Shown: positions 10,854 through 63,613 of the stretch, one piece after another
Numbering within the stretch: the first letter of the stretch is position 1
Layout: each line of letters opens with the position of its first letter
Assembly: GCA_034439575.1 (NCBI GenBank)
Contig: JAWXAQ010000008.1
Location: 1 to 64,000 of the forward strand
Direction of reading: 5' to 3'
Source: Leptospira sp.
GTDB taxonomy: Bacteria > Spirochaetota > Leptospiria > Leptospirales > Leptospiraceae
DNA length: 64,000 nucleotides
Notes under the pieces: model-generated
What the model was told of the DNA's origin: nothing
Seen by the model: the letters and a program-made list of their open reading frames with translations, nothing else
Databases searched by the model: none
Program-made: the position numbers and the translations under genes

Positions 10854-10959
10854 TTTCTCACGGAGACAACATATTTAAACATATAATATTAAGAATTAGA
10901 ACCGAAACAAAGAAGAATTAGCATTAGTTAAAATTTGAATGTGATTTTAAAAATAAATT

Positions 10960-20751: not shown

Positions 20752-20871
20752 CTTAACAAAGGAGTATAATTGATCGGTGCACATCCGTCGTTCCGATATA
20801 TAATTCTGAACAAATTTATAGATTATTTAATAGATTTAGCATATGGCTTCATACTAAATTAGGGATACATA

Positions 20872-21597: not shown

Positions 21598-21987
21598 CTA
21601 TCTTTGTGACCATGCCGAACACCATCCTTTGGATGAAACCACACCCGTAGATATGATGTTACACTTTCCCCATGCTTCATTTAACTGATTAAACTGTGCG
21701 CAGTATTTGCATACTTGTTTGGCGGCAGAAGGACTTTTACGTTCTGGATAAAGATCAAAATTTGTTTGTTTTGCATCATGATGAAAACCAAGGGCAATGG
21801 CTGTCGGTTCTGTTTCTAAAACTGGGATTTCGCCATTTGGAAGGGGAGATTTTTCCAAACCTGATTCTTTTGTTTTCTCTTTAGAATCAAGCGAATCAAA
21901 TGATTTCAATATCATCGAAACAATAAGTAGAGACGATCCATAATGGATCGCCCCTTTCAAAAAACTTTTCCGAGTGAGTCTCTTCAT
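21598..21987 (-). CDS. High-potential iron-sulfur protein (HiPIP) with Tat-like signal
   Basis: EPTAIALGFHHDA...CKYCAQF...GKCNII...VSSKGWCSAW four-Cys HiPIP motif; TRKSFLK leader. Confidence 0.88.
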   Translation of the reverse strand: MKRLTRKSFLKGAIHYGSSLLIVSMILKSFDSLDSKEKTKESGLEKSPLPNGEIPVLETEPTAIALGFHHDAKQTNFDLYPERKSPSAAKQVCKYCAQFNQLNEAWGKCNIISTGVVSSKGWCSAWSQR

Positions 21988-21988
21988 A

Positions 21989-24235
<2,247 letters not shown>

Positions 24236-31157: not shown

Positions 31158-31808
31158 TCATTTCATTCCGATATATGCATATTCTGTGACGGTTTGAATG
31201 AAATTTTCCATTTCAGATATATCATTTTTTATCTTCAATCGTCCCTCTAAAAAAAGCATTGTTATACCATGAATCATCGCCCAAGAAGCTAAAGTTTTTT
31301 CTCTAGTTTTATCTTTCTCTAAATAGCCAAGGTTTTGACCCAATCGAATGATGTCATGTAACTGGCGATATGTTCTTTTTGAAACTGCCGATAAAGCTGG
31401 GTTACTATTTAAATCTATACCTATACCACCAAACATGATTCTTGCGAATTGTTTATGGGTCATGATAAATTGAAAATAAGTCCAGCCGAGTGCTTTGAAA
31501 CGGCCTTTAAAATCCTGGTCTGTCCTTTTTAATTCAGTTTGATACGTTTCAAAATATTTTTGAAATCCGATTTCCGCAATGGCTGAAAATAACGCTTGTT
31601 TGTTTTCGAAATGGTGGTAGGACGCAACATGGCTAACACCTGCGATTTTTGCCACATTACGTAGCGAAATCTCTTCTATGGAATTTGTATTTAATAATTG
31701 AATCCCAGCTTCGATAAGCGCCTCTCTCACATCGAGCGCATCCTTTTTGAAGGGTCTACCTACGGATAATGGCTTTTTTTTAAGTTTAGTTTCTTTTTTT
31801 TTGGCCAT
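31158..31808 (-). CDS. TetR/AcrR-family regulator (WHG-type C-terminal domain)
   Basis: ISLRNVAKIAGVSHVASYHHFENK; WAMIHG. Confidence 0.93.
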   Translation of the reverse strand: MAKKKETKLKKKPLSVGRPFKKDALDVREALIEAGIQLLNTNSIEEISLRNVAKIAGVSHVASYHHFENKQALFSAIAEIGFQKYFETYQTELKRTDQDFKGRFKALGWTYFQFIMTHKQFARIMFGGIGIDLNSNPALSAVSKRTYRQLHDIIRLGQNLGYLEKDKTREKTLASWAMIHGITMLFLEGRLKIKNDISEMENFIQTVTEYAYIGMK

Positions 31809-31846
31809 GATTCTATGATTATTTGGATATAATTTGTTGGAAACAC

Positions 31847-31867
31847 TTATTTACCGTTGGTAAATAA
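31847..31867. promoter_or_regulatory. Putative TetR operator 1
   Basis: Perfect inverted repeat TTATTTACC-GTT-GGTAAATAA in the divergent tetR/fadH gap. Confidence 0.7.
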
Positions 31868-31893
31868 TGGGATTGCTTTGAAATACGAATATA

Positions 31894-31906
31894 TTACCAA
31901 TGGTAA
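31894..31906. promoter_or_regulatory. Putative TetR operator 2
   Basis: TTACC-AAT-GGTAA, same core as operator 1. Confidence 0.65.
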
Positions 31907-31935
31907 ATTAATGATCATTCTTTGGGAAAAATCAA

Positions 31936-33930
31936 ATGGATAATGCTTTTACATCAATAAAAATCGGCAATTTCACTCTTCCAAATCGTTTTATCATGGG
32001 TTCTATGCATCTAGGACTTGAGGGAGAAGTAAATACGGCGGAAAGAATAGCCGCCTTCTATGAAAAAAGATTTTTGGGTGGAGTCGGTTTGATCGTTACA
32101 GGTGGAATCAGTGTGAATGAGGAAGGGAAAGGATCTCGTACTTTCTTTAATATCCAAAACAAAGATCATGCAAATGAATTATTAAAAATGAATCATTTGT
32201 TAGCTGGTAAGGGAAACATGTGTGCACAACTTTTTCATGCAGGTAGATATGCAGCAGATAGAAGTTTGGTCGCACCTTCTGCCATTCGAGCACCAATCAG
32301 TCGCTATGTTCCTCGGGCTCTATCTGAGGATGAGTGTTGGAAGACAATTGAAGATTTTGGGATTGCGGCAAAAATTGCGAGGGAAATAGGTTTTGCATCT
32401 GTCGAGATCATGGGAAGTGAAGGGTATCTGTTGAACCAATTTTTCTCACCTGTCACTAACCATAGAGATGATTATTTTGGCGGTGATGCAAAGCGAAGAA
32501 TGAATATGTCCATCGAAGTCCTTCGCTCAGTCATCAAAAATTTACCATCAGGTTTCCCTGTCATTTTTCGTATGTCTGGAATTGATTTAATTCCTGGCAA
32601 TGCACCTTTTGAAGATGTTGTCCAACTAGCAAAAACATTACGAGATGAAAATGTATCAGCTTTAAATATTGGGATCGGATGGCATGAATCACGCATTCCG
32701 ACAATCAGCCAATTAGTTCCAAGAGGTGCCTGGGCAGGTATCGCAGGTCGGATCAAAGCAAATACTCTTGGTGTTCCCATCATTGCTTCGAATCGGGTGA
32801 ATGATCCTATTACCATGCAAAAAATATTCGATAATCACCAAGCAGACATTATATCTATGGCGAGGCCATTTCTTGCCGATCCAGAAATAGTTAATAAATT
32901 AACAAATGGAAATGCCCATCGTATCAATACTTGTATAGCTTGTAACCAAGCCTGTCTTGATCATGCTTTCCAAGAAAAATCTGTTTCTTGCATTGTAAAT
33001 CCAGAAGCCGTTAACGAACTTCAGTATCAAAAAACAAAAACAAATTCTCCTAAAAAAATTGTAGTCGTAGGCTCTGGTCCTGCTGGTTTAGAAGCCGCAA
33101 GAGGTTCAGCAAATCTCGGTCATAATGTCATACTTCTGGAACAAGCAAATGTGTTAGGTGGCCAGTTTCAATTGGCCTCACATATCCCTGGCAAATCCGA
33201 ATTTAAAGAAACGATTCGATACTTTACAAATGAACTCACTGCTATTGGCGTGGATATTCGATTGAATGTTAAGGCTACTATCGAACTGTTAGAAGAATTA
33301 AATCCTGATGTTATCATTTTTGCTATTGGTGTGAAACCAAGAAACATTGAATTGAAAGGTATAAAGAATCTTCCATACGGAAGTTATACTGATTATTTAA
33401 ATGGAAAATTTAAACCTGGGCGACGCGTTGCCGTCATTGGTGGAGGTGGAATCGGTGTCGACGTAGCACATAAATTAACAGAAGACGGTGATCCAACCTT
33501 GGATTCGTATAATAAAAAATATAACATTGATTCATTTACAAATGTAGTGATTCAAAATGAAAAAGCTAATAGAGATGTGGCAGTATTTCGTAGAAACGGA
33601 AAACATGGCGCAGGCCTCGGTCCAACTACTTTCTGGGCTCTTAAACAAGAATTGGAATCTGTCGGAGTTCAATTCTTTCATGGTTTAAATTATAAAGAAG
33701 TCACAAAAGAAGGGTTAAAAATAGAATATAAAAATGGCGAAGAGTTTATTTATCCTTGTGACTCTCTGATACTTTGTGTCGGACAAGAAAAAGAAAATGA
33801 TCTCTTTGAAGAATTTAAATTAAAGAATCCCGATAAACGAATGTTTATTGTCGGCGGTGCTAAGGATGCCAATGGTGTTGATGCCAAACGAGCCTTTGCC
33901 GAAGGATTGGATGCGGCATATCAAATTTAA
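31936..33930 (+). CDS. fadH: 2,4-dienoyl-CoA reductase (NADPH)
   Basis: NRFIMGSMHLGLE, EIMGSEGYLLNQF, GWHESRIPTI, NTCIACNQACLDH, GSGPAG. Confidence 0.93.
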   Translation: MDNAFTSIKIGNFTLPNRFIMGSMHLGLEGEVNTAERIAAFYEKRFLGGVGLIVTGGISVNEEGKGSRTFFNIQNKDHANELLKMNHLLAGKGNMCAQLFHAGRYAADRSLVAPSAIRAPISRYVPRALSEDECWKTIEDFGIAAKIAREIGFASVEIMGSEGYLLNQFFSPVTNHRDDYFGGDAKRRMNMSIEVLRSVIKNLPSGFPVIFRMSGIDLIPGNAPFEDVVQLAKTLRDENVSALNIGIGWHESRIPTISQLVPRGAWAGIAGRIKANTLGVPIIASNRVNDPITMQKIFDNHQADIISMARPFLADPEIVNKLTNGNAHRINTCIACNQACLDHAFQEKSVSCIVNPEAVNELQYQKTKTNSPKKIVVVGSGPAGLEAARGSANLGHNVILLEQANVLGGQFQLASHIPGKSEFKETIRYFTNELTAIGVDIRLNVKATIELLEELNPDVIIFAIGVKPRNIELKGIKNLPYGSYTDYLNGKFKPGRRVAVIGGGGIGVDVAHKLTEDGDPTLDSYNKKYNIDSFTNVVIQNEKANRDVAVFRRNGKHGAGLGPTTFWALKQELESVGVQFFHGLNYKEVTKEGLKIEYKNGEEFIYPCDSLILCVGQEKENDLFEEFKLKNPDKRMFIVGGAKDANGVDAKRAFAEGLDAAYQI

Positions 33931-33954
33931 GCTGATAATTCTCAAAGGAAACCT

Positions 33955-35700
33955 ATGATCGCTAACAACTATTTCGCAGATGATGAAGATCTGCAGGTAT
34001 TTTTTCAACAATTGATAGATTGGAATCCCATCATTCTTGAAGTCGAGGGGGAAAAATTTATTGATCATCAAAAATATGTACATTCAAAGGATTCAAAATT
34101 TGAAATGGCTCCTTCCAATGAAATAGAAGCTAAGGATTTATATGAATCCAGTCTATTTTCGTTAGGTGAATTTTTTGGCAAAGAAGTTTCACAACATTCT
34201 AAAGCAATGGATGTCAAAGAATTAAAATATGACAAAGGGAAAGTGATCTTTCCGAATGAAACAAAAGACATATATGAAAAATTTATAGCAACCGGTCTTA
34301 TGCCTTATGCAATTTCTAGAGAAGCAGGTGGATTGTCATTTCCAGCCACAATGAGTGCGTTATATGCTATGATTATGGCACGTGCCGATGTTTCTTTTTG
34401 TATGACCATTACGCTTTTGAATCTTGCTCAGATCGTAGCTAGATTTGGAACATCAGAACAAATTAGCAATTTTGCGAGAAAAGCCGCGACGGGTGAGTGT
34501 TTATTTGCTATGGCTTTGACTGAACCGGATTATGGTTCAGACTTAAATAATATCAAAACGGTCGCGATAAAGTCACCTGATGGTAGTTACAGATTAACAG
34601 GCGCAAAACGTTTCATATCCCAAGGTTGTGGTTTAGGAGATCATTCTGCCTTGCTATTGACACTTGCTCGTACAGGAAAATCTGAAGGTGGGGCGAGGGG
34701 TCTATCTGTATTTATCGTAAAAAGCACGGATGTATTTGTAGCAGGCATAGAAAAGAAAATGGGGATTCACGCCTCTCCTACTTGTGAAATTGTTTATGAA
34801 GATACATATGGGGAGATATTGGGCGAAGAGGGAATGGGTTTAACTCGTTATACGGCAGGTATGACAAATTTTATGAGACTTAGTAGTGCCTCTGGTGGAC
34901 CCGGTGGTGGCGCAGGTGTTTATTATGAATGTAAAAAATATGCAAGTGAAAGAATGCAATTTGGAAAACCAATCATTGAAATTCCTGCTGTCGCAGAAAT
35001 GCTTCATAAAATTAAACGAGAAACAAACGCTATGCGACTTATTGCTCTTGAAACAGCACGCGTAATAGATATGTTTCAGCACCATCAAATAAGATTAGAA
35101 AAAGCTGGATTACCTGATCGAGAAATCAGAAAAGATGATAAAATAAAATATTGGTCATCACTGGCAAATACTCTTACACCTATTGCAAAATACTATGGAT
35201 CGGAAGAGGGGCACAAATGTGCTTATTTAGCTGTTCAAATTTTTGGCGGTGCTGGTTATACGGAAGATTACGATGTTTCCAGAATGTTCCGCGATTCTAG
35301 GATCAATACAATTTATGAAGGAACCAGTCAAATTCATGTACGAATTGCAACTGGTGGCATTATCGCTGGTATGGCAGGCGAAGGAAATTTCAAAAAGTAT
35401 TTAATAGACTTAAACAGTGATATTTTGAATCCTTCAAAATATTTATTAGAACAATACAAGTTGTTAGAAGAATCAATTGAAACATTACGTTCTTTGAATG
35501 ATGAAAATAAAAAAGAAAAATTATCAGAAAGTTTAATGATACAAATGGGACGATATTTATGTAGTCTGTTATACGAAAGATCATTATTTAAGTTAAAAGA
35601 AAATGAAGTATTGAATCGATGGACTGACGATTGTTTGGCTTATGTTATAGATAGCACTTCCATTTCTTTGGCATGTCACTATAAAATTCAAAATTTATAA
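33955..35700 (+). CDS. Acyl-CoA dehydrogenase
   Basis: MALTEPDYGSD, GIEKKMGIHASPTC, QIFGGAGYTEDY, IYEGTSQI. Confidence 0.93.
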   Translation: MIANNYFADDEDLQVFFQQLIDWNPIILEVEGEKFIDHQKYVHSKDSKFEMAPSNEIEAKDLYESSLFSLGEFFGKEVSQHSKAMDVKELKYDKGKVIFPNETKDIYEKFIATGLMPYAISREAGGLSFPATMSALYAMIMARADVSFCMTITLLNLAQIVARFGTSEQISNFARKAATGECLFAMALTEPDYGSDLNNIKTVAIKSPDGSYRLTGAKRFISQGCGLGDHSALLLTLARTGKSEGGARGLSVFIVKSTDVFVAGIEKKMGIHASPTCEIVYEDTYGEILGEEGMGLTRYTAGMTNFMRLSSASGGPGGGAGVYYECKKYASERMQFGKPIIEIPAVAEMLHKIKRETNAMRLIALETARVIDMFQHHQIRLEKAGLPDREIRKDDKIKYWSSLANTLTPIAKYYGSEEGHKCAYLAVQIFGGAGYTEDYDVSRMFRDSRINTIYEGTSQIHVRIATGGIIAGMAGEGNFKKYLIDLNSDILNPSKYLLEQYKLLEESIETLRSLNDENKKEKLSESLMIQMGRYLCSLLYERSLFKLKENEVLNRWTDDCLAYVIDSTSISLACHYKIQNL

Positions 35701-53734: not shown

Positions 53735-54217
53735 ATGGCAAAAGAATCATCAAGTAGCAATCAATTCATTCACGAACAGTACATTATCTTTAATTTAGGC
53801 GATGAGGAATATGCGATACCTATCACTATCGTAGAAGAAATTGTCAAGATTACAAATCTCATTCGCATTCCCCAGTCTAAGAGCTATTTTGCGGGCATTA
53901 TGGATATCAGAGGTAAGGTGGTAAGAATGATTGACCTTACAAAAAGGTTAAACATTCGTAATGCGAATGCAGTTGAAAATGCAGAGCGTGCCATTGTAAT
54001 CAACATTGCAGGAAAATCTGTGGGTGTGATTGTGGACAAAGTATCTCATGTGATCCACTTTCCAGCAAATCAAGTGGATCCGCCTCCACCTTCTGTGAAG
54101 GGGATATCGTCTCGTTATATTACGGGAGTGGGAAAAAAAGATAATCGATTCATCATTTTGATAGATATTGAAAAAATTTTGACAGTAGAAGAAATTTCAG
54201 AGCTCGCAGTTGTTTAA
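53735..54217 (+). CDS. cheW: Chemotaxis coupling protein CheW
   Basis: [16 protein letters not shown]...[17 protein letters not shown]. Confidence 0.94.
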
Positions 54218-54232
54218 ATAGATTAGAACTCT

Positions 54233-54946
54233 ATGATTATTTCTAAGTTTTATTACCTACGCAAAAACCTTTATACTATGGCGGAACTGGTGTTAGAGCA
54301 GGTAATATTACTTAGCGAGGCATTGGAAAATGATGACTACGACCAAGCCAATCAAATCGTAGAACGAGACGACTTGATAGACAATCTAGAAAAAGAAAAT
54401 GATAACCTTTCCCAAATTGCGATCCTTGAGGCGATTACAAATCGAAATATCCTCGGGATGGGCAATGTGGATAACGAGATCATTTTAAAGAAAGACCCGC
54501 TTCGCTTTGCCCTTTCTGCGATCCGGATCACAAGAAATATGGAACGTATGGGTGACCAAGTTGTCAATTGTGCGGAAGTATTTCGTTATAAAACAATTCG
54601 CCCTGGACTCTTTAAAAAAGAAGAACCTATGGGTCTGATACTTTCTCGTGTGACTACTCTCGCGGGGATGGCTATCGAATCTCTCGTTGAAGAAAAAGAA
54701 AGATTTATGGGAAGTGTGAATACCATCGAAGACGAGTTAAACGGTCTTTGTGATGATGCATTTCGCAAATACAGAGAATCGGATATGGCAAAAAATGAGT
54801 TTGCCGATGTATATCGTATTATTTTGGCTTTGGAAAGACTGGGTGATTATGCTGTGAATGTTGCCGAAGAGCTTGTTCGACTCAACACAGGTAAGGACAT
54901 TCGTCATTTAGAAAATACAAGCAGTGGGGCTGGAAAATTTCCTTAG
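54233..54946 (+). CDS. phoU: PhoU-family protein
   Basis: Two repeats: RDDLIDNLE...NMERMGD and EDELN...[13 protein letters not shown]. Confidence 0.8.
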
Positions 54947-54956
54947 AGGAATAGAA

Positions 54957-55703
54957 CTAAGAATCGAATCGTGTTGAAAAAATACGATCCCATAGATCAA
55001 AAAAAAGACCAAAATTTCTGTTTGGATACTTATGATGCAAATAATGAAATTGATTTCCTGAATGAAAAGGAATGTGTTTTTGCCATTCCCATGGAAATTT
55101 GTATCCACAATGACCGGAAACCCCTATCCATTGCCGTAAAAAAATCCACATATAAAAAACCCAGACATTGGCACCTAACAACAATGGGCCGCTATAAAAA
55201 CTGAGTGAAATCAGTATATATTCAATCGGATGAAAATGAATGGCTGCGAGAACCGAGCTATGTCGATAGGAATGATGTATTCGATGTACTTTATGATATA
55301 AGAAGGGAGAATGTAAATGTCTATGATAAAAATAGAATAACAGATCGTCTAACATCAAAAAGAATAGTATTTGTAAAATGGAAATAATAAATCCTGGGAA
55401 TGGGGAAAGATTAATCTGACTTAAACTTAGCAATGGCCAAAAAATCACAGACAAACAAAAAAGTAGGATCGAATTAAGAATAAAAAGAAAGATTGATTTA
55501 TGGCCTAAATTTTTGTTAGTTTTTGTTTCAATTCTATATTTATTAAATCTTGTAATTTTTAAGTGATCAATTATCAAATAGGGAAGTGCAAGAATTATAT
55601 AAGATATGATCGAAAATAAGACCGCATATATCGAAAACCATAAACATCTATCATCTTGGTAAATGTTCAGTATGGGCTGAATAAAAAATGTTAGTTGATC
55701 CAT
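54957..55703 (-). CDS. Sterol desaturase / fatty-acid hydroxylase family di-iron membrane enzyme
   Basis: His boxes YHRHLH, HRIHH, HFHPIE, GHCGY, HYLHH; NFG...WDRIFST. Confidence 0.9.
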   Translation of the reverse strand: MDQLTFFIQPILNIYQDDRCLWFSIYAVLFSIISYIILALPYLIIDHLKITRFNKYRIETKTNKNLGHKSIFLFILNSILLFCLSVIFWPLLSLSQINLSPFPGFIISILQILFFLMLDDLLFYFYHRHLHSPFLYHKVHRIHHSYRHSSVLAAIHFHPIEYILISLSFYSGPLLLGANVWVFYMWIFLRQWIGVSGHCGYKFPWEWQKHIPFHSGNQFHYLHHKYPNRNFGLFFDLWDRIFSTRFDS

Positions 55704-55710
55704 TTGTAAA

Positions 55711-56586
55711 TTAAGTTTTTAATTTAGCTAAAGCAATATTTTCACGAATGGTTTTTTTTAGCTTACTTCCAGGCATTGATTTCAAAACAAAGTTAGGTGA
55801 AATTATTTGCATTAAATCAAATCCTAATGGTTTTAGAAAATCTTTTAAATCCGTTGCTTGAATCCCCCATAAAAAAGGTTCGCGTTTCACTCGAAGATAA
55901 CTATTAACTAACAAATTATTATCATAAAATATGGGTTTACCTTGTAAATTTACCTCGATAAAAGTGAATAAAAGATATACGTTTTTAAAATTGAACGAAA
56001 GGCTGAATAAGTGTTCTTTGATCTTTTGCTCTGATAGATACATAAAAAGTCCTTCTGCATAAACTAAGGTAGATTCTTCGAATTGAATATCTTTCGGAAA
56101 CAAAGCTTCATGAAAAAAGTCTACAGGATGTAATACGAAGTTTTCTTTTTTGATCCCCGTTTTTTCAAACGATATCTTTTTTACTAATTGAGTCGCCGGA
56201 TGATCTAATTCCCAAATTTTAATTTTTGGAAATTGATCAGTTACACGAAGGCTAAAAGTATCAAAACCGGACCCTAACACAAGCAAGGTTGATATTTTTT
56301 CCTTTTCAAATAAATCTAGTGCTATTTCACTCAGAATGTTTTTTCTTATAGCATAGTGTGCAATTAAGTTTGGAAAGAAAGTAGATTCAATCACAGAAAT
56401 AATCTTTCGAAAAAAGGAAAACTTCAATAGTCGAAGAATCAGATTCTTTCTTTTTCCAAAAGAATCTATACAATTTTTTTGAAATAGAATATATTTATTA
56501 GAAACTAAATTTGATTTTTCAAAATGTAAATATAAAATACATAAAGAAATTAATCTTGCTGTACCGCTTGGTGAAGATTCCTTCAT
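55711..56586 (-). CDS. SAM-dependent methyltransferase, LCM/TIGR00027-like
   Basis: SGTA, VLGSGFDT, WELDHPAT, VDF, AEGLFMYL. Confidence 0.88.
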   Translation of the reverse strand: MKESSPSGTARLISLCILYLHFEKSNLVSNKYILFQKNCIDSFGKRKNLILRLLKFSFFRKIISVIESTFFPNLIAHYAIRKNILSEIALDLFEKEKISTLLVLGSGFDTFSLRVTDQFPKIKIWELDHPATQLVKKISFEKTGIKKENFVLHPVDFFHEALFPKDIQFEESTLVYAEGLFMYLSEQKIKEHLFSLSFNFKNVYLLFTFIEVNLQGKPIFYDNNLLVNSYLRVKREPFLWGIQATDLKDFLKPLGFDLMQIISPNFVLKSMPGSKLKKTIRENIALAKLKT

Positions 56587-56597
56587 ATGTTTACCAC

Positions 56598-58214
56598 TTA
56601 ATCATTGATAATCGGTTGTTCATTTGTGAAATAATTCCATTTGTATTGAGAATCGCGCATACCCATTTGAAATTTCCCATATACGATAGAATTAATCGTG
56701 CCTTTCGGAATATTGATTAATCGTAGGGGATTTATCCTTTGTGATTTTCGTTTGGTTTCATATTCCCAATTTGCAATTTGTAAGAAGTCATCAAATTTTT
56801 TTGACAAAACATTTATTTTTTCTTTGTTTTCTATATCAGATATCTCGCAAAACAATTCGTAGCCATTATAATCTTGAGAAGGATATATTATAAATCGTTC
56901 ATCATTCAAAATTAATTCTAGCTTCAATTGTTCTCTTGCAAATAGAAAATGATTGATGTGCAATTTTTCACCGACAAGATCAGACATATCTTTGTTTTTA
57001 CGCATAAATTTTATAATCGGAGCTTCTTTATAAAAACCAGTGACTTGGATGACATCACCTAGGTCATAACGATATAAGCCACTTGCGTTCGTAATTAAAA
57101 TATAATATTCTTTTCCTGCTTCCAAATCATCTATTTGCAAACAATTGTATTGCTCATTTTCGTATTCATTCTTTGGAATGAATTCATAAAAATTATTATG
57201 TATCGCAAGGATTCCCTCTGAAGTGTTGTCTCGAAAAGGTAAACTCATTCTCGCTTCACTTGCGTGAAAGCCCAAATCGCGAAGAGGGATAGATGGAAAT
57301 TTTTCTTTTAATTTAGTAACTTGACTGCCACAAGATCCACCTAACCATACCGAAATCATTTTTAAATTTTCCCAATAAGTGAGCGGATTGAATTTCCCAG
57401 CATTTAAATTTATGTTTTTTTCAAACCGCCTTGCTACATTTATATTTGGTTTGAATAAGTGATTCATTCTTATTTTATCTTCATGGATAGAAAATCCTCC
57501 TTCATAAAAAGATCGTAGTATCATATCCGTAGACTCACCGAGTTTGTCCAATAATTGAAGGATGGTACCAGAGTTAGGTGTCGCGATAAAGGAAATATCT
57601 TTTGTAAGGGCAGATCGAACGATTAATAAATAACGAAGATTAAAATCTTCTTCTTCAAAAACCTCATATGGAACTGCATACTTATTGCGGATGAACCAAG
57701 GAGCTGATTTGTAAGCTATTCCTGATGCGGAACCAATCGGAACTCCCGAAGGAGAGTAAGTCTCTATCGCTCTTCCTGGAATCGCTAATCGAAACCCATC
57801 CATAGCAGATGGATGATCTGTTAATAATCCTCCAATCCAAGTGTCCAATAAATGTTTTGATTGATTATGAAACGAGCGCGTCACAGGAATATGTTTTGGA
57901 TTGTTTGTGGTACCACTTGTTAAATTGAAAAAATTTACTTTTTCTTTTGTCAAAACATTTGGAATTCCCTTCATAATACTTTCAATTTGTGATTGGTACG
58001 AAATATAATTATGTATAGGTATAGATTTCTGAAATTTTGAAATTGAAAAATTTTGATATATTGATTTGAAATCATACTCCTTACCAAAATTAGTATGATG
58101 GTTGTTAACCAAAACATGTTTCAAATATTCGATTTGAATATTTTGTGCGTTCTTGCAACTTTTTTGAAATTGGTTAAATTTATTCTTTAGAAAAGATAAT
58201 AAAATTGGATTCAT
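56598..58214 (-). CDS. GH3-family acyl-acid amido synthetase (adenylate-forming)
   Basis: TNFGKEYDF, TSGTTNNPKHIP, FHASEA, FYEFIP, TNASGLYRYDLGD, DLVGEK. Confidence 0.9.
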   Translation of the reverse strand: MNPILLSFLKNKFNQFQKSCKNAQNIQIEYLKHVLVNNHHTNFGKEYDFKSIYQNFSISKFQKSIPIHNYISYQSQIESIMKGIPNVLTKEKVNFFNLTSGTTNNPKHIPVTRSFHNQSKHLLDTWIGGLLTDHPSAMDGFRLAIPGRAIETYSPSGVPIGSASGIAYKSAPWFIRNKYAVPYEVFEEEDFNLRYLLIVRSALTKDISFIATPNSGTILQLLDKLGESTDMILRSFYEGGFSIHEDKIRMNHLFKPNINVARRFEKNINLNAGKFNPLTYWENLKMISVWLGGSCGSQVTKLKEKFPSIPLRDLGFHASEARMSLPFRDNTSEGILAIHNNFYEFIPKNEYENEQYNCLQIDDLEAGKEYYILITNASGLYRYDLGDVIQVTGFYKEAPIIKFMRKNKDMSDLVGEKLHINHFLFAREQLKLELILNDERFIIYPSQDYNGYELFCEISDIENKEKINVLSKKFDDFLQIANWEYETKRKSQRINPLRLINIPKGTINSIVYGKFQMGMRDSQYKWNYFTNEQPIIND

Positions 58215-58236
58215 AGCTTAACACATTGGGTTCATT

Positions 58237-59382
58237 TTAATTAGAATATTTTTGAAGAATTTTTTCATTGATCGTATATCCAAAACTAAGTGATTTTTGA
58301 ACTTCCAATTTTCCCGCATAACCAATAGAATTTGATTTAAAATCGATATCTGATTTTAATAATAAATTTCCATATCCGCCTTCTAAATACTTTGTTTCTG
58401 TAAAATGAGATGCAAGTAATTGCCCAACTTTTGAAAGGATAGATAGTTCTCCCACATGGCAACCAATCTGGAACCAAATATGATTTTCATTCGCAAGATT
58501 CACCATCTTTATAAAAGGATAAATACCACCAAGCCTGGAGATCCGGAGATTAAAGGCGTCATAACTTTTTGTTTCAATGATGTCGAGAGCATCTTGTTTG
58601 GTGATCAAAGATTCGTCTGCCATGAGTGGAATTCCAATTTCCTTTTTAATATAACTAATTTCTTTATGTTGTCCTCGGATGAAAGGCTGCTCAATGGAAA
58701 TAATATTTAATTTATTGAATTTATTTAAGGAATTAATATCTGATTTATTTTTTAAATCGTAAGCGGAATTGGCGTCTAGTCGGATTCGAATGTTTTGACC
58801 TAAGGCGAAACGAATCATATCCAATCTTTCATAATCTTGAAATCGATTTAATTTGACTTTGTAATCCTTGAATCCAAAAGCAAACATTGATAATGCGAAA
58901 ATAGTAGACTTGATAGGAGGATAGGCACCAATACCAGTTCCATAATTAAGGAATTTTTGATGCAAAGAAAAAAAATCGTGAAAGGAAGCACCGATACGAT
59001 GAAAAAGACAATCTATAAGAGCGAGTTCGGTGGCAGATTTCGCAGCATTCCAAGCTATGACTTTGTCAGATGAAATATTTGGAAATTCCGTGTGGAATTC
59101 TTTTAAGAATTGAAGTAATTCTTTTTGATTTTGAATCAAACAATTCCAATTTTTTTTTATTATCCAGGGATTAATCTGGTTTTTCAAAAAGGATTCACAG
59201 GATAACAAATCTTCACCGGTCACATATGTTCTCGGTGCTCCTTCTCCAAAGCCAATATTTCCTTTTTCATCTGATATCCGTACGATGATTGATTCAGATT
59301 GAAATCGATTGCTAAGATTATGAGAAAAAGAAAACCGCATTGGTATTTTAACTTTGAATACGTGAAATGTATTAATTTTCAT
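58237..59382 (-). CDS. Enolase-superfamily (MLE/dipeptide-epimerase subgroup) enzyme
   Basis: GFGEGAPR.YVTGE; KVK; metal ligands in LDANS, IEQP, ADES; GCHVGE. Confidence 0.88.
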   Translation of the reverse strand: MKINTFHVFKVKIPMRFSFSHNLSNRFQSESIIVRISDEKGNIGFGEGAPRTYVTGEDLLSCESFLKNQINPWIIKKNWNCLIQNQKELLQFLKEFHTEFPNISSDKVIAWNAAKSATELALIDCLFHRIGASFHDFFSLHQKFLNYGTGIGAYPPIKSTIFALSMFAFGFKDYKVKLNRFQDYERLDMIRFALGQNIRIRLDANSAYDLKNKSDINSLNKFNKLNIISIEQPFIRGQHKEISYIKKEIGIPLMADESLITKQDALDIIETKSYDAFNLRISRLGGIYPFIKMVNLANENHIWFQIGCHVGELSILSKVGQLLASHFTETKYLEGGYGNLLLKSDIDFKSNSIGYAGKLEVQKSLSFGYTINEKILQKYSN

Positions 59383-59693
59383 ATAAAGGGATGATTAAAT
59401 ATAAACTAATGTTTGTTTGCAGAAATCAGATATAGGGATTTTAATGCATTAAGAAGTGTTATGTCAAACTCTTCTTTGGATCGTTCAAAGAAGTCTTTCG
59501 ATTTCGAAATGTTTAAACCCTGACTCCTTGAAGAAAAAACCATAATTTCTCATCAAAAAATTGAAACTTCCTCCCATTTCTTGATCCCAATCAGAACTTA
59601 AAAAAACCCAAAAAATAGTTCGATATTGAATTATTTTATATCAAATAAACACACATTCGGTCTAATCAGTGAATTACGCTTTGGAGTTTAAAA

Positions 59694-60767
59694 TTGAGCA
59701 AATTGTTTTCACCTACTGATTTAGGACCTATTAAATTAAAAAACCGAGTCGTTATGGCTCCCATGACAAGATCAAGATCGATTGGAAATATCCCGAATGA
59801 TTTAGTCGCCACCTATTATGAACAGCGTTCAGAGGCTGGGCTGATCATCACTGAGGGAACATCCCCTTCTCCGAATGGACTTGGTTATGCGAGAATTCCG
59901 GGTATTTTTTCTAAGGAGCAGGTAGCTGGTTGGAAAAAAGTTACTGAGAAAGTTCATGCTAAAGCGAGTAAAATTTTTGTTCAATTGATGCATACCGGAC
60001 GAATTGGACACCAAGCGAACCTACCGAATGGTGCAGAGATTCTGGCTCCGTCTGCAGTGCTCGCCAAAGGCCAAATGTGGACAGATGCAGAAGGGATGAA
60101 AGACCATCCCGTTCCAAAGGAAATGACACTTTCTCAAATTCAAGAAGCTATCAATGAATATACCAATGCTTCCAAAAATGCCATCGAAGCTGGTTTCGAT
60201 GGCGTTGAATTACATGCAGCTAATGGGTATTTATTGGAGCAATTTTTGCATCCTACATCGAACATTAGAAATGATGAATATGGTGGCAGTCATCAAAAAC
60301 GATTGAAATTTGTTTTGGAAACTGTTGCTTCCGTCGTGAATGCCATTGGAAAAGAAAAAGTAGGGATACGTTTGTCGCCATACGGTGCATTTAATGATCT
60401 TTTTCCTTTTGAAGAAACCGAAATAGAATATACTCTTTTAGCAGAAAAATTAAATGAATTGGGCATTGCCTATATTCATTTGGTGGATCACTCTTCAATG
60501 GGAGCACCAAAAGTAGAACCGTCAACTGTGAAAAAAATCCGCGAAGCCTTCAAAGGAACTTTGATATTAAGTGGAGGTTATGACCGAGTAAGGGCAGAAG
60601 CCGACATAGATTCTGGAAATGCTGATCTGGTCGCTTTTGGAAAACCGTTTCTATCTAACCCAAATTTGGTGACTAAATTGGAGAAAGGTTTAGCTCTCTT
60701 ACCGATTGACGAATCAAAACTTTATACAGCGGATGAGAAAGGTTATACGGACTATGCTTTAGTATAA
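59694..60767 (+). CDS. Old yellow enzyme family alkene reductase (NemA-like)
   Basis: NRVVMAPMTRSR, GLIITEG, GFDGVELHAANGYL, NIRNDEYGGS. Confidence 0.93.
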   Translation: MSKLFSPTDLGPIKLKNRVVMAPMTRSRSIGNIPNDLVATYYEQRSEAGLIITEGTSPSPNGLGYARIPGIFSKEQVAGWKKVTEKVHAKASKIFVQLMHTGRIGHQANLPNGAEILAPSAVLAKGQMWTDAEGMKDHPVPKEMTLSQIQEAINEYTNASKNAIEAGFDGVELHAANGYLLEQFLHPTSNIRNDEYGGSHQKRLKFVLETVASVVNAIGKEKVGIRLSPYGAFNDLFPFEETEIEYTLLAEKLNELGIAYIHLVDHSSMGAPKVEPSTVKKIREAFKGTLILSGGYDRVRAEADIDSGNADLVAFGKPFLSNPNLVTKLEKGLALLPIDESKLYTADEKGYTDYALV

Positions 60768-60803: not shown

Positions 60804-60834
60804 CTCGAACTTTAACATTCAATTAAGGTTCGAG
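60804..60834. terminator. Possible bidirectional terminator between convergent genes
   Basis: CTCGAACTTTAA-N7-TTAAGGTTCGAG followed by TTTT. Confidence 0.5.
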
Positions 60835-61497
60835 TTTTCCTTCCATATACGATTGCAATTCTTGTTGTAAACCTTCTGGTAAATCAAGTCCTCTTGCTCT
60901 AATCCTCTCATTGTACTTGTTAAACGACATTCTATGTTGATTTGTATTTAGGTAACCTTCTAAAGCTTCAGATGCCCAAGGAATAATCTCTCGAACAAAG
61001 TCATGATTTTCTTCTAATTCATCACAATAAGGGATAAATAGAGGACGATTGACAGGTCTACCGATATTGCGATAAAAAAGTAAACAAAACAAAGTTTCAT
61101 CACCAAGTACTTGTTCTGTCCTTATTTTTTCTTCTACATATTTTAGATTAATTGTATCAAGGTATTCAATATTGAAAGTTTCGGGCTGGAGTCGTTTAAC
61201 TATAAATTTGCGGATTTCTTCTTTTACGAAAGTTACATTTGGGCAATGATTTGGGCAGGATCCTTGGTCTTTGTGCAAGTCACATTCAATTAGTAAAATA
61301 CAGTCCACGTCAGAAGTAGGTTCTACTATTCCAAAATTGATGGAGCCCAAAATTTCAAGGGCTACCTCATAGCCTTTGCGTGACAATTCTTGCGTAGCAA
61401 GTCGAAAGGCTTGCATTCGTTTGAGGGCATACTTCGTATCGTAGTTTCGATATTTATTTTTGAGTACCAAATACCTTTCGACTATGTTCTTTGACAT
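60823..61497 (-). CDS. Hypothetical protein with Pol-beta-type nucleotidyltransferase motif
   Basis: ILGSINFG...SDVDCIL; ATG 61497 after GGAGG. Confidence 0.65.
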   Translation of the reverse strand: MSKNIVERYLVLKNKYRNYDTKYALKRMQAFRLATQELSRKGYEVALEILGSINFGIVEPTSDVDCILLIECDLHKDQGSCPNHCPNVTFVKEEIRKFIVKRLQPETFNIEYLDTINLKYVEEKIRTEQVLGDETLFCLLFYRNIGRPVNRPLFIPYCDELEENHDFVREIIPWASEALEGYLNTNQHRMSFNKYNERIRARGLDLPEGLQQELQSYMEGKLEP

Positions 61498-61603
61498 AGA
61501 GCCTCCAAATTCCAAACCCTCAGAATTCTCACAATTTGAATTTCCAAGTTCTGCAGCTTTTGGTATACAGAAATTCTTTTTTCGCCGATAGTTAAGATTA
61601 GTT

Positions 61604-63613
61604 ATGATTTCCCTGAGAGTTTTAAATAGAATCTGGATTTTTGGAATCCTAATTGTAACATTCTCTATTTTGGAAGCTGGGGAAGAAGACCGTAGAAATC
61701 AGCTAAAGGATTTGTATTTAAATCCCTTGCAAGTGATAAGCCCTGAAGAAATCCAATCGCTTGATACCGAAAAAAGAATCCCCATTGATGAAGACTCTGG
61801 TATAGCTTTAAAACCCACACCACCACCGGCTGTAGACCCAAATCTGCCACCAAGTGATTTTCCAGCAGATCCTACAGAAACAGATACCACACAAGAGACA
61901 GGACCCAAAAATTTAGAAACAAAAATACGTGAAGTAGAAGGATTACTTAAAAGATATTACAGTCAATTTATTGAAGAGAAACGGATTTGGGAAGATAGAG
62001 AAAGAGGAAATATTTATAATTCAAGGTCGGATCAAAATGATGTTAGGTTATTACTATGGCAAAATACTCATAAATTAGCTGAGACATTTGTGGTAAGGGA
62101 TTCACCAGTGTTGTACGAATTGCACTTAAGAGCTGCTAAATTATATGCAGAAGCGGGAAAAACGGCACCTTCACTTAGACATTATTTGGCAGGATTTCGA
62201 TATCACCCACTGGATTTAACAGAGGAAATGTTTAGAGAAGGGGAATGGCAAAAAGAAGATTTTAAACAAACCTGGTTACCTCAAGCTAACGAACATAAAA
62301 CGAATTTCGCAGAGTTTAAAAAAGCAGAAAAAGAATGGGAAGAAAGTAAAGATAATTTGCATACATCGCTTGCCAATCTTGCCAAAAAAAATAGATCTCT
62401 CGCAGAAATTCAGAATGAAGAAACTAGACAAAAACAAATCGTATCTTTGAAAGAAAAATCATATTTAGAAGCTTTAAAAAAATATGAATCATCAAAATTA
62501 GAAAATTATAATAAATATTTGGTTCAAAAACAAAAATCGGATTCTACAAACTTATACGAAATGGCCGCCGTAGTTAAAAAAATAGAGGATGATAACAAGG
62601 AAAGGCTTAAAATTATAAACAAACTCGGAACGGCGGGTAAAGGAATTTATGTTTTATTTGATTACAAAAGAAATGTGGATTTTTTCGCCTATGAATTGTT
62701 ACTTGAGAAAGCTTATAGCCAATGGCCAGAAAATCCATCCGTCATATTTGATATAGCGGAACAATACCGTCAAGATAGCCAAAAAGAAAAAGCCATAGAT
62801 TTTTATGAAAAATATGTAAATTTACTGAATAAAGAAAATATTTTAGATGAAATTCAAACTGAAAAATTGAAAAATACTTACCTTCGACTTGCAACTTTAA
62901 ATGCAGATATCAAGCGTAAGGTGATTGCCAGTGCTTGGTATGAGAAATTCTTTCAAATTTCCCAAGATTCAAAAGAAAAAACAAGAGTATCCTTTGAAAT
63001 GGGAGTATTTTTTGCCACACACATTGGTGATTTAAAAAAGGCTTCGAATTATCTTATCTATTGGTTGGAAAGAAATAGTAAAGATTGGAACCCAAGTTTA
63101 AATGAAAATACGGGTTTGGAAGAATTGGAAGCCATTTCCTTTTTTCATCTTTCTCGTTTGGACAAACAGAACCGAAAATCGGAAGCAGAGCGAAGCAAAC
63201 TCAATTTAGCTTACAACCAATGGAAAAAAATCGACGCTGAGTTATTGGAAGCTGAAAAACTATCAGTAGATTTAAAATCTCAAAAACAAAAAATTAAAAA
63301 AGATTTATTGGTAACCACAGAAGATGAAGCACTTTCAAAATACCGCCTTGTTGATTTAAAAATCGAAGACGCAGAAGCAAGACTTCGAGTTTTGAAAACG
63401 AAACTAGACAAAGTGCCAGTATTAAAGATTGTTTATCGGTTGGCTGTACTTGCAGAAGGGAGTCATGATTTTGAAAAAGCCAAGGGATATTATCAAACAG
63501 TGATTGAACTTGGCGGAGAGACCGAAATCCAAGCGGCACTTCGTGAAAAGAAAAGAGTAGAAAAAATTATTTCAACCGGAGTGATTGATCCACCATTTAA
63601 CGAGAGTATTTGA
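61604..63613 (+). CDS. Exported TPR/coiled-coil protein
   Basis: Signal peptide; TPR-like helices (EKAIDFYEKY, FEKAKGYYQTVI). Confidence 0.75.
   Translation: MISLRVLNRIWIFGILIVTFSILEAGEEDRRNQLKDLYLNPLQVISPEEIQSLDTEKRIPIDEDSGIALKPTPPPAVDPNLPPSDFPADPTETDTTQETGPKNLETKIREVEGLLKRYYSQFIEEKRIWEDRERGNIYNSRSDQNDVRLLLWQNTHKLAETFVVRDSPVLYELHLRAAKLYAEAGKTAPSLRHYLAGFRYHPLDLTEEMFREGEWQKEDFKQTWLPQANEHKTNFAEFKKAEKEWEESKDNLHTSLANLAKKNRSLAEIQNEETRQKQIVSLKEKSYLEALKKYESSKLENYNKYLVQKQKSDSTNLYEMAAVVKKIEDDNKERLKIINKLGTAGKGIYVLFDYKRNVDFFAYELLLEKAYSQWPENPSVIFDIAEQYRQDSQKEKAIDFYEKYVNLLNKENILDEIQTEKLKNTYLRLATLNADIKRKVIASAWYEKFFQISQDSKEKTRVSFEMGVFFATHIGDLKKASNYLIYWLERNSKDWNPSLNENTGLEELEAISFFHLSRLDKQNRKSEAERSKLNLAYNQWKKIDAELLEAEKLSVDLKSQKQKIKKDLLVTTEDEALSKYRLVDLKIEDAEARLRVLKTKLDKVPVLKIVYRLAVLAEGSHDFEKAKGYYQTVIELGGETEIQAALREKKRVEKIISTGVIDPPFNESI

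Follow-up and report, generated by a model that had tools for sequence, protein, structure and literature searches.

A Four-Gene Cluster in Leptospira

The 64,000-nucleotide stretch of DNA from Leptospira sp. analyzed here (assembly GCA_034439575.1, contig JAWXAQ010000008.1, positions 1 to 64,000; hereafter the window) carries on its minus strand a compact cluster of four genes whose inferred products are an enzyme of the enolase superfamily (hereafter ENO), an amide ligase of the GH3 family, a methyltransferase of the LCM family, and a membrane hydroxylase of the FA_hydroxylase family (Table 1). A preliminary description of the window, made from its letters and a list of its open reading frames (ORFs), had presented these genes as a GH3-centered biosynthetic operon. 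Its account of the layout agrees exactly with the ORF list: the genes are co-oriented and are separated by gaps of 22 nt (58215-58236), 11 nt (56587-56597), and 7 nt (55704-55710). Its family assignments were likewise borne out, in that Pfam recovered MR_MLE_C, GH3, LCM, and FA_hydroxylase, all above their gathering scores. The stop codon of the hydroxylase gene lies 10 nt from that of the convergent phoU gene, and an intergenic region of 311 nt separates the ENO gene from a divergent gene for a protein of the OYE family.

Table 1. The four-gene cluster, its flanking genes, and a promoter-like site
Feature	Position	Strand	Remarks
ENO: enolase-superfamily enzyme, muconate-lactonizing enzyme (MLE) subgroup, 381 aa	58237-59382	-	gene 1 of four
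GH3-family adenylating amide ligase, 538 aa	56598-58214	-	gene 2 of four
LCM-family S-adenosylmethionine (SAM)-dependent methyltransferase, 291 aa	55711-56586	-	gene 3 of four
FA_hydroxylase-family membrane di-iron hydroxylase/desaturase, 248 aa	54957-55703	-	gene 4 of four
Promoter-like site, TTGACA-18 nt-TAAAAT	59438-59467	-	in the ENO/OYE gap; weak evidence
CheW	53735-54217	+	Pfam
PhoU	54233-54946	+	Pfam
Oxidored_FMN (OYE) protein	59694-60767	+	Pfam

The four genes also stand out in composition, as the preliminary description had noticed. The G+C (GC) contents of the ENO, GH3, methyltransferase, and hydroxylase genes are 30.9, 28.5, 31.8, and 32.2% (mean 30.9%), as compared with a mean of 36.8 ± 3.8% (minimum 29.6%) for the remaining 54 ORFs of the window, and when all 55 sets of four successive ORFs are compared, the cluster has the lowest value. 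Equally AT-rich single genes do occur in other parts of the window; a GC content of 32.2% or less is found in 11 of the 58 ORFs, the four of the cluster included. The short gaps suggest that the four genes are co-transcribed and, judging from this arrangement, we take the cluster to be a real four-gene operon, in which a pair consisting of ENO and GH3 is extended by the methyltransferase and the hydroxylase. The low GC content, together with an abrupt drop in the identity of relatives from 63-67% to approximately 40% in other phyla, suggests that the cluster is accessory and possibly acquired.

The promoter-like site of Table 1, which is located 55 nt upstream of the ENO gene, matches the consensus at 11 of 12 positions and is the best in the interval 54000-60200; the scan of that interval returned 22 sites as against 26.4 in shuffled sequences and hence no excess. 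A scan for terminators also gave no excess of sites over shuffles. A riboswitch or other structured leader was considered and rejected: the interval 54500-60000 has no match in Rfam (E ≤ 1), and the fold of the leader scored z = 0.41 relative to shuffles.

ENO and GH3 Genes Form a Conserved Pair

To place the cluster in a wider setting we relied on a single scan of GTDB species genomes with an alignment (A2) of the window ENO and 59 of its relatives. ENO relatives were detected in at least 582 genome stretches, of which the best 80 were retained as loci, all of them picked through ENO. The ENO proteins of these loci are 30-39% identical to that of the window, whose own genome is not among them since its sequence does not match the pattern used for the search. 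The loci represent 16 named phyla, including Cyanobacteriota (25 loci), Acidobacteriota (8), Latescibacterota (7), Lentisphaerota (6), and Rokuibacteriota (6); five of the 80 records carry no phylum.

When searched with the window proteins (tblastn), 79 of the 80 loci proved to have a co-oriented GH3 gene immediately 3' of the ENO gene. The gap between the two is short (median 4 nt, and 50 nt or less in 49 of 61 cases, with starts set by the longest ORF), and the pairwise identities of the ENO proteins track those of the GH3 proteins (r = 0.94; 73 loci, 2628 pairs), a correlation that shared ancestry alone could give. The arrangement in the window, in which an ENO of the Arg-bearing kind described below is followed on the same strand and after 22 nt by GH3, matches the definition of the pair. 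Given that the two genes lie side by side and point the same way in all but one of the 80 loci, which represent 16 named phyla, we conclude on the evidence of gene order that they belong together beyond doubt. Full-text searches of the literature returned no description of the ENO/GH3 pair. In the sole locus of the 80 that lacks GH3 within 10 kb (L077, ENO at 10001-11113), it is an alpha/beta-hydrolase gene that follows ENO.

These results shift the center of the proposed operon. GH3 is a core member, as had been supposed, but the cluster is organized around the ENO/GH3 pair and not around GH3 alone. The co-location of all four genes that might have been expected in other genomes was not seen: the ENO/GH3 core recurs, but none of the 80 loci has the complete set of GH3, MLE-subgroup enolase, LCM, and FA_hydroxylase genes. 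Homologs of the methyltransferase are present in six of them, and neither tblastn nor the clustering of locus ORFs revealed a homolog of the hydroxylase in any. Since the exact set is absent from the 80 loci, as is the hydroxylase, the conserved unit is the first two genes, and the window cluster is one lineage-specific version of a two-gene core that is widely conserved but uncharacterized. PhoU, CheW, and two uncharacterized neighbors in the window have no homolog in any of the 80 loci. The OYE neighbor had been entertained as a pathway member by analogy with OPR3; this idea was rejected, there being no homolog of it in the 80 loci.

ENO Has Arginine in Place of the Second Catalytic Lysine

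ENO matches the MR_MLE_C family of Pfam with a score of 90.8 bits (cut-off 29.4). In a PDB search its nearest solved relatives by sequence were N-succinyl Arg/Lys racemase (2p88; E = 4.9e-31), dipeptide epimerases, and enzymes of the N-succinylamino acid racemase (NSAR)/o-succinylbenzoate synthase (OSBS) type. An AlphaFold2 (AF2) model of high confidence (predicted local distance difference test [pLDDT] score of 94.9) gave the same enzyme, 2p88, as its top match in Foldseek (TM-score 0.84). By sequence and fold together, the solved relatives are 2p88, the dipeptide epimerases 3jva, 1jpm, and 3q45, NSAR/OSBS enzymes, and, further off, MLEs. Among database sequences the closest relatives are 65% and 63% identical, and the next is 40% identical.

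The catalytic apparatus was examined in a set of 82 sequences comprising the window ENO, the sequences P0122 and P0123, and those of 79 loci. The KxK motif (K175 and K177, at the end of strand 2) and the metal ligands (D203, E231, and D256) are present in all 82. At the position that a second catalytic Lys occupies in racemases and epimerases, however, all 82 have Arg (Arg280 in the window): where 2p88 has NIKLMKCGG, the window has NLRISRLGG and most relatives have FNLRISKCGG. In alignment A2 (60 sequences), the same position is occupied by Arg in 53 sequences and by Lys in seven, with the Lys-bearing sequences being the most distant. Three residues of the capping domain, H21, R26, and R51, are likewise invariant (82 of 82), and a fourth, Y53, is nearly so (81 of 82); all four are specific to the ENO family. 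A distant sister group that retains the Lys (P0163, P0165, P0167, and P0172-P0175) shares the invariant His21 and Tyr53.

The consequences of the substitution can be gauged from work on related enzymes. According to the accessible part of a preprint (bioRxiv 10.1101/2022.03.03.481873), the Lys in question (K263 when numbered as in Amycolatopsis) serves as the acid/base catalyst in racemization and gives only a cation-pi contact in the OSBS reaction, and a residue three positions further on (R266, equivalent to K271 of the Bacillus epimerase) belongs to the second shell. In the window clade, the next basic position after Arg280 is also Arg. Given that the second catalytic Lys is Arg in all 82 sequences, ENO cannot, on the strength of its sequence, be a canonical two-Lys racemase, and plain two-Lys 1,1-proton transfer is excluded. 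ENO may be a one-base enzyme like OSBS and MLE, or some other residue may substitute for the absent base. A Tyr/Arg pair is reported to act as the base in another enolase-superfamily enzyme, although a literature search for this precedent found nothing. The assignment of ENO to the MLE subgroup in the preliminary description holds, but ENO is not an ordinary member of that subgroup.

ENO falls under every equivalog cut-off of NCBIfam; its best match is a model for OSBS (E = 1.7e-25; 89.7 bits versus a cut-off of 200.65), and it scores 81.2 versus 500 and 66.1 versus 400 bits with epimerase/racemase models. An identification of ENO as MenC was rejected on the basis of scores of 89.7 versus 200.65 and 48 versus 130.55 and of the absence of men genes from the window.

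The GH3 Ligase

The ligase contains the N, M, and C domains of GH3 proteins (PF03321, PF23571, and PF23572), with scores of 170.2, 84.4, and 45.8 bits (cut-off 23.6 for each). The nucleotide-binding motifs of adenylating GH3 enzymes are intact (TSGTT at 99-103, ASE at 318-320, and YRYDLGD at 381-387), and their T-S-G, S-E, and Y-R-Y..D residues are conserved in all 78 aligned family members. The nearest solved structures are those of JAR1 (E = 4.6e-27) and GH3.12 (1.7e-22). Close relatives are few: one is 67% identical, one is a fragment that is 97% identical, three are 51, 50, and 48% identical, and the remainder are at or below 40%.

The preliminary description had named no characterized pathway for such a gene set. 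A bacterial GH3 pathway was published in 2025, however, in the form of the OlsH-OlsG-OlsI ornithine-lipid operon of Singulisphaera acidiphila (J Biol Chem; PMC12493201), in which, as the available portion of that report describes, OlsH is an N-acyl-ornithine synthase with all three nucleotide-binding motifs conserved, OlsG an N-methyltransferase, and OlsI an alpha/beta-hydrolase. The same portion states that GH3 homologs occur widely in bacteria and that their products may include other N-acyl amino acids. Literature searches returned no characterized bacterial GH3 other than OlsH. OlsH (NF052613, lyso-ornithine lipid synthetase) is also the sole NCBIfam match of the window GH3, with a score of 79.1 bits versus a cut-off of 620 and over the N-terminal 210 residues only; relatives of the window GH3 score between 57.6 and 102.7 bits with the same model. 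By these scores the window GH3 is not an OlsH equivalog.

Genes That Accompany the Pair

We clustered the ORFs of the 80 loci, built hidden Markov models (HMMs) of the clusters, and compared representatives with Pfam and NCBIfam. Seventy-three loci extend at least 700 nt upstream of ENO, and in 71 of these (the exceptions being L003 and L077) one of four kinds of gene lies directly upstream of ENO on the same strand: a gene for a heme-oxygenase-like di-iron protein (HDO) of PF14518 (48 loci), a HAD hydrolase (10), a 450-aa protein without a Pfam family (9), or an alpha/beta-hydrolase of the Hydrolase_4 family (4). Counted over all 80 loci, HDO is directly upstream of ENO in 49 (L002, L004, L010, and 46 more; for example, L004, 9150-9875), and in 15 of 37 cases the two genes overlap by 4 nt (ATGA). 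Apparent HDO/ENO fusions in the high-GC loci L074, L076, and L080 were rejected as artifacts of the longest-ORF rule, the true arrangement being the 4-nt overlap. The only named similarity of HDO is a weak one, to CADD-type 4-aminobenzoate synthase (E = 0.02 and 1.7e-4). Its conserved residues E81/E82, H92, E144/E149, H180, D184, and H187 resemble a complete set of di-iron ligands. For the 450-aa partner we found weak look-alikes among oligogalacturonate-lyase/beta-propeller proteins (0.92), with recognition under threshold.

The four kinds of upstream partner are clustered on the ENO tree, with eight changes as against 31.7 in shuffles. The window cluster has none of them, its ENO gene being preceded by the intergenic region and the divergent OYE gene, and no PF14518 protein is encoded among the 58 ORFs of the window. 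Indeed, the window ENO and two database relatives (63-65% identical) form a clade of their own, which has no upstream partner and is the sole clade with FA_hydroxylase.

A further partner, in seven of the 80 loci (L001, 7440-8585; L005, 5849-7039; and five more), is a protein of approximately 380 aa with a C-terminal RidA/YjgF domain, which weakly matches the FkbO/Hyg5 chorismatases (TIGR04444; E = 5.8e-11, far under the cut-off). The loci with this RidA fusion are from Nitrospirota, Lentisphaerota, Planctomycetota, and Verrucomicrobiota, and they also contain the 450-aa protein and a methyltransferase of the ICMT family.

The upstream partners bear on the question of which enzyme acts first. 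One possibility, which follows the logic of MenC and MenE, is that ENO is a one-base dehydratase or cycloisomerase that converts a precursor to a carboxylic acid, that GH3 adenylates this acid and conjugates it to an amino acid, and that the conjugate is then modified by the two remaining enzymes of the cluster. Such a scheme agrees with the position of ENO ahead of GH3 in 79 of 80 loci, and the CADD-like HDO (49 of 80) and the chorismatase-like RidA fusion (7 of 80) could supply a ring or acid precursor. It is also consistent with the best NCBIfam match of ENO being the OSBS model, even though the score is under the cut-off, and with the invariant R26 and R51 of the capping domain, which would be appropriate for a substrate with a second anionic group. 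The invariant Arg, as a permanent cation, would suit one-base chemistry, for in the OSBS reaction the corresponding Lys is not an acid/base and makes only a cation-pi contact (bioRxiv 10.1101/2022.03.03.481873, accessible part). We nevertheless consider this scheme rather unlikely: in both sequence and fold the solved enzymes nearest to ENO are not OSBS or MLE but enzymes that racemize or epimerize N-acylated amino acids, the similarities to CADD and the chorismatases are weak and far under their cut-offs, and the window has no upstream partner, so that the precursor there would need to be a common metabolite.

Other accessory genes recur in and around the pair. An oxygenase (HDO, P450, or PhyH) is present in 59 of the 80 loci and a methyltransferase of the LCM, ICMT, or FkbM family in 26. 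The latter include an ICMT-family gene after GH3 on the same strand in 11 loci, an LCM gene after GH3 in four on the same strand and in two more on the other strand, and an FkbM gene in nine. The supposition that a methyltransferase is part of the pathway is supported, a methyltransferase being a recurrent accessory. The supposition that an oxidizing enzyme is part of it is supported for oxygenases in general, which are frequent, FA_hydroxylase itself being found in 0 of 80. A 158-aa protein of unassigned family, whose look-alikes are hypothetical proteins only, is encoded after GH3 in 17 loci. Loci with the HAD-type upstream partner carry genes for P450, M24 peptidase, FkbM methyltransferase, PfkB kinase, and PhyH dioxygenase; another architecture combines an OleD-like reductase with a lysophospholipase-like hydrolase, and yet another has a P450 resembling terpene oxygenases.

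Hydrolases accompany the pair in 33 of the 80 loci (CocE/NonD in 17, M24 Xaa-Pro-peptidase-like proteins in nine, and alpha/beta-hydrolases in the remainder), and an alpha/beta-hydrolase gene adjoins the pair in those loci whose ENO is nearest to the window clade. Their frequency raises the possibility of a salvage, turnover, or stereo-inversion system, in which GH3 would N-acylate an amino acid or peptide fragment, ENO would invert or otherwise process its C-alpha, and a hydrolase would release the product. The NSAR of Geobacillus reportedly takes part in such an acylate-racemize-deacylate route, and the nearest solved relatives of ENO include dipeptide epimerases that recycle murein peptides. 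The gene for MurJ adjoins the module as well, but only in a few closely related cyanobacterial loci. Two features make this reading improbable for the window: its cluster has tailoring enzymes in place of a hydrolase, and the base that a racemase would use is absent, its place being taken by Arg in all 82 sequences.

The Methyltransferase and the Hydroxylase

The methyltransferase matches the LCM family of Pfam with 58.1 bits (cut-off 22.3) and is predicted to be soluble, with no transmembrane (TM) segment; its nearest relative is 54% identical. A profile of its family (A4) detected in the PDB ML2640 (E = 1.3e-19), Rv0731c, LCMT-1 (1.4e-13), PPM1, and LCMT2, and its AF2 model (pLDDT 94.8) has as its top folds LCMT-1, PPM1, ML2640c, and Rv0731c (TM-scores of 0.61-0.71). 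For characterized LCM proteins (LCMT-1/PPM1 and TYW4) and for ICMT, the methyl acceptor is the alpha-carboxylate of an N-substituted amino-acid residue. By analogy, the window methyltransferase probably methylates a carboxylate. The occurrence after GH3, in different lineages, of LCM and ICMT, which are unrelated families of carboxyl methyltransferases, is the strongest hint that the GH3 product would keep a free alpha-carboxylate that is subsequently esterified. Just one relative of the methyltransferase is long, namely P0231 (765 aa), in which an LCM domain is naturally fused to a FAD_binding_4 oxidase domain; it was considered as a Rosetta-stone fusion and rejected as such, the second domain not being GH3.

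The hydroxylase matches FA_hydroxylase (PF04116) with 88.9 bits (cut-off 31) and has three predicted TM segments and the His boxes H127xxxH131, H140xxHH144, and H220xxHH224. Its relatives are 62%, 61%, 47%, and 40% identical, the third being labeled Leptospiraceae, which is consistent with a Leptospira source. PDB searches with the single sequences of the methyltransferase and of the hydroxylase gave nothing usable.

Could these two genes simply be unrelated, co-oriented neighbors of a functional unit consisting of ENO and GH3 alone? The hydroxylase, with no homolog in the 80 loci, and the methyltransferase, which does not group with the GH3-linked LCM genes, would fit that description, as would the Leptospiraceae label of the 47% relative of the hydroxylase, a label that is not carried by the few named relatives of GH3 and ENO (most being unnamed). 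But gaps of 11 and 7 nt on the same strand leave no room for a separate promoter, the four genes share a low GC content and form the lowest four-ORF run in the window, and their nearest relatives are at a similar distance (GH3, 67%; ENO, 65%; methyltransferase, 54%; hydroxylase, 62%). Methyltransferases and oxygenases, moreover, recur beside the pair elsewhere. We therefore regard a chance association as very improbable.

The hydroxylase also brings back the ornithine-lipid enzymes, its sole NCBIfam match being the ornithine lipid hydroxylase OlsE (NF052566; 30.1 bits versus 475). With OlsH and OlsE as the only NCBIfam matches of GH3 and the hydroxylase, respectively, one can envision an OlsH-type pathway to a membrane aminolipid, in which GH3 would make an N-acyl, ornithine-like lyso-lipid, an OlsE-like enzyme would hydroxylate it, and the methyltransferase would act on the head group. 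The hydroxylase is an integral membrane protein, the OlsH operon has a methyltransferase of its own in OlsG (PMC12493201, available portion), and the alpha/beta-hydrolase that adjoins the pair in the loci nearest to the window ENO clade recalls OlsI, an alpha/beta-hydrolase O-acyltransferase. The resemblance breaks down in several respects, and we give the aminolipid pathway little credence. The scores are remote from the cut-offs (79 versus 620 for OlsH and 30 versus 475 for OlsE); the window cluster has no O-acyltransferase; OlsG is an N-methyltransferase (PMC12493201, available portion), whereas the window enzyme has the fold of the LCM carboxyl methyltransferases; and the available portion of that report mentions no ENO-type gene in OlsH operons. 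In addition, the orders in which a 2026 review, as far as it is available, places OlsH homologs (at least 30% identity) exclude Leptospirales (PMC12971839).

A Proposed Pathway

The operon probably makes a modified conjugate of an acyl group with an amino acid. For each of the solved enzymes nearest to ENO, the site of reaction is the C-alpha of an N-acylated amino acid or a dipeptide, and it is for this reason that we place the ENO step on an N-acyl amino acid, downstream of GH3. In the order of events that we tentatively favor, at a confidence a little short of even, GH3 would activate a carboxylic acid as an acyl-adenylate and attach it to an amino acid through the latter's amino group, yielding an N-acyl amino acid with a free alpha-carboxylate. 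ENO would bind this alpha-carboxylate via Mg2+ and remove the C-alpha proton, leading to epimerization to the D form or to elimination, with Arg280, perhaps together with the invariant Tyr53, replacing the absent second Lys base. The LCM-type methyltransferase would then convert the alpha-carboxylate to a methyl ester, making the product neutral and placing it beyond the reach of ENO. Finally, the membrane di-iron enzyme would hydroxylate or desaturate the hydrophobic part. The product would be an oxidized N-acyl amino acid methyl ester, either a signal of the lipoamino-acid type or a surface lipid.

The substrates and the order of steps in this scheme, like the lipid nature of the acid, are what we infer from the enzyme families and from their neighbors. 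That the acid used by GH3 would be lipophilic is suggested by the membrane-embedded hydroxylase in the window and by the likewise membrane-embedded ICMT, the OleD-like reductase with its lysophospholipase-like hydrolase, and the terpene-oxygenase-like P450 at other loci. The view taken in the preliminary description, that of a self-contained pathway around a GH3 ligase, is thus a fair reading insofar as the pairing and the recurrent methyltransferases and oxygenases are concerned; a conserved four-gene pathway it is not. We hold the aminolipid pathway, the turnover system, and the chance association of neighbors to be less likely than either the favored order or the one in which ENO acts first.

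Several observations weigh against the favored order. The reaction of ENO may be something other than 1,1-proton transfer, the second Lys being Arg in 82 of 82 sequences, and the position of its gene ahead of GH3 fits equally well with ENO making the substrate of GH3. The absence of the four-gene set, and of the hydroxylase, from all 80 loci is a further difficulty, as is the lack in the window cluster of genes for acyl supply, export, or regulation. The CADD-like HDO (49 of 80, by a weak similarity) and the chorismatase-like RidA fusion (7 of 80) hint at aromatic rather than fatty acids, and the CocE/NonD (17 of 80) and M24 (9 of 80) hydrolases could signify turnover rather than synthesis. 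The methyltransferase scores only 65.3 bits with TIGR00027, under the cut-off of 93.55, as compared with 124.5 bits for the GH3-linked LCM protein of locus L016, and it and the six LCM genes linked to GH3 do not make up a single clade (four changes on the tree). Lastly, loci anchored on ENO do not give the share of the GH3 clade that is paired with ENO.

A broader proposition, which we consider possible but on balance doubtful, is that the Arg-variant ENO and GH3 constitute an undescribed two-enzyme system found in at least 16 named phyla, in which ENO catalyzes a kind of reaction so far absent from the catalog of the MLE subgroup and lineage-specific oxygenases and carboxyl methyltransferases diversify the product into a family of small conjugates. 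ENO could here employ a base pair of Lys and Tyr-Arg on an N-acyl amino acid, or a one-base elimination or cyclization coupled to the ligation by GH3. The product of the window cluster would again be an oxidized N-acyl amino acid methyl ester, a member of a class resembling the N-acyl-homoserine lactones (AHLs) and having no known biosynthetic genes.

Comparison with Known Systems

Of known systems, the OlsH operon is the one that likewise uses a bacterial GH3, carries out ATP-dependent N-acylation of an amino acid, and is compact and equipped with a methyltransferase (PMC12493201, available portion). It differs in that the window has no alpha/beta-hydrolase O-acyltransferase (none among its 58 ORFs by Pfam), in that the methyltransferase is of the LCM type and not an N-methyltransferase, and in that the defining neighbor of the window pair is ENO (79 of 80 loci).

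NSAR, N-succinyl Arg/Lys racemase, and the dipeptide epimerases (2p88, 3jva, 1jpm, and 1sja) provide the best matches to ENO in sequence and fold and share with it the KxK motif and the D/E/D metal ligands; moreover, their substrates, N-acylated amino acids, belong to the product class of a GH3 ligase. Unlike them, ENO has Arg for the Lys of strand 6 (K263), falls far under the equivalog cut-offs, and has H21, R26, R51, and Y53 as residues of its own.

In menaquinone synthesis MenC is followed by MenE. As in the window, an enzyme of the MLE subgroup is succeeded there by an adenylate-forming enzyme that activates its carboxylate, and OSBS uses one Lys as a base and the other only electrostatically. 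MenE, however, belongs to the ANL ligases and forms a CoA thioester, whereas GH3 would make an amide, and there are no men genes nearby.

Jasmonate in plants is conjugated and tailored by JAR1, a GH3 enzyme, by a carboxyl methyltransferase, and by an enzyme that hydroxylates the conjugate. The combination of amide ligation by GH3, carboxyl methylation, and hydroxylation is thus common to plant and window, and JAR1 is the nearest solved relative of the window GH3. The plant methyltransferase and hydroxylase are from other families, however, and there is no ENO; the OYE gene beside the cluster recalls OPR3 but lies outside the conserved module.

If an N-acyl amino acid methyl ester is indeed the product, the cluster would provide the genes so far lacking for a class of metabolites already known from bacteria and would point to an unrecognized lipid or signal in a spirochete. 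N-acyl alanine methyl esters (NAMEs) are made by Roseovarius tolerans, for which no candidate synthase genes were found (PMC11580390). No roseobacter or other alphaproteobacterium is present by title among the 80 loci (five records being without a phylum). Whatever the product, ENO and GH3 offer a concrete pair of proteins in which to seek new conjugation chemistry, with a large GH3 clade that, in loci selected through ENO, is almost always paired. ENO itself flags a subfamily of the well-studied MLE subgroup that does without a supposedly essential catalytic Lys, and the pair has a real chance of representing new enolase-superfamily chemistry.

Other Genes in the Window

Beside the OYE gene are two genes (60823-61515, 230 aa; 61604-63613, 669 aa) whose products have no significant match in Pfam, with sub-threshold hints of TPR and nucleotidyltransferase domains, and which are absent from the 80 loci. 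A second OYE-family gene of the window is found in a fatty-acid context at 31158-35700, where a gene for a TetR regulator is divergent from genes for a two-domain OYE/pyridine-nucleotide-disulfide oxidoreductase, similar to 2,4-dienoyl-CoA reductase, and a long acyl-CoA dehydrogenase. A catalase-peroxidase-like gene adjoins a HiPIP gene at 21598-24220, and two genes are related to those for photolyases and cryptochromes (9618-10853 and 24332-25831; FAD_binding_7 and DPRP). Finally, we note that the window encodes a protein of 1446 aa with three Laminin_G_3 domains, a He_PIG domain, and a C-terminal DUF1554 (2589-6929), the last of these being in keeping with a Leptospira-like genome, as well as a smaller, paralog-like protein with He_PIG and Laminin_G_3 domains (19615-20784).

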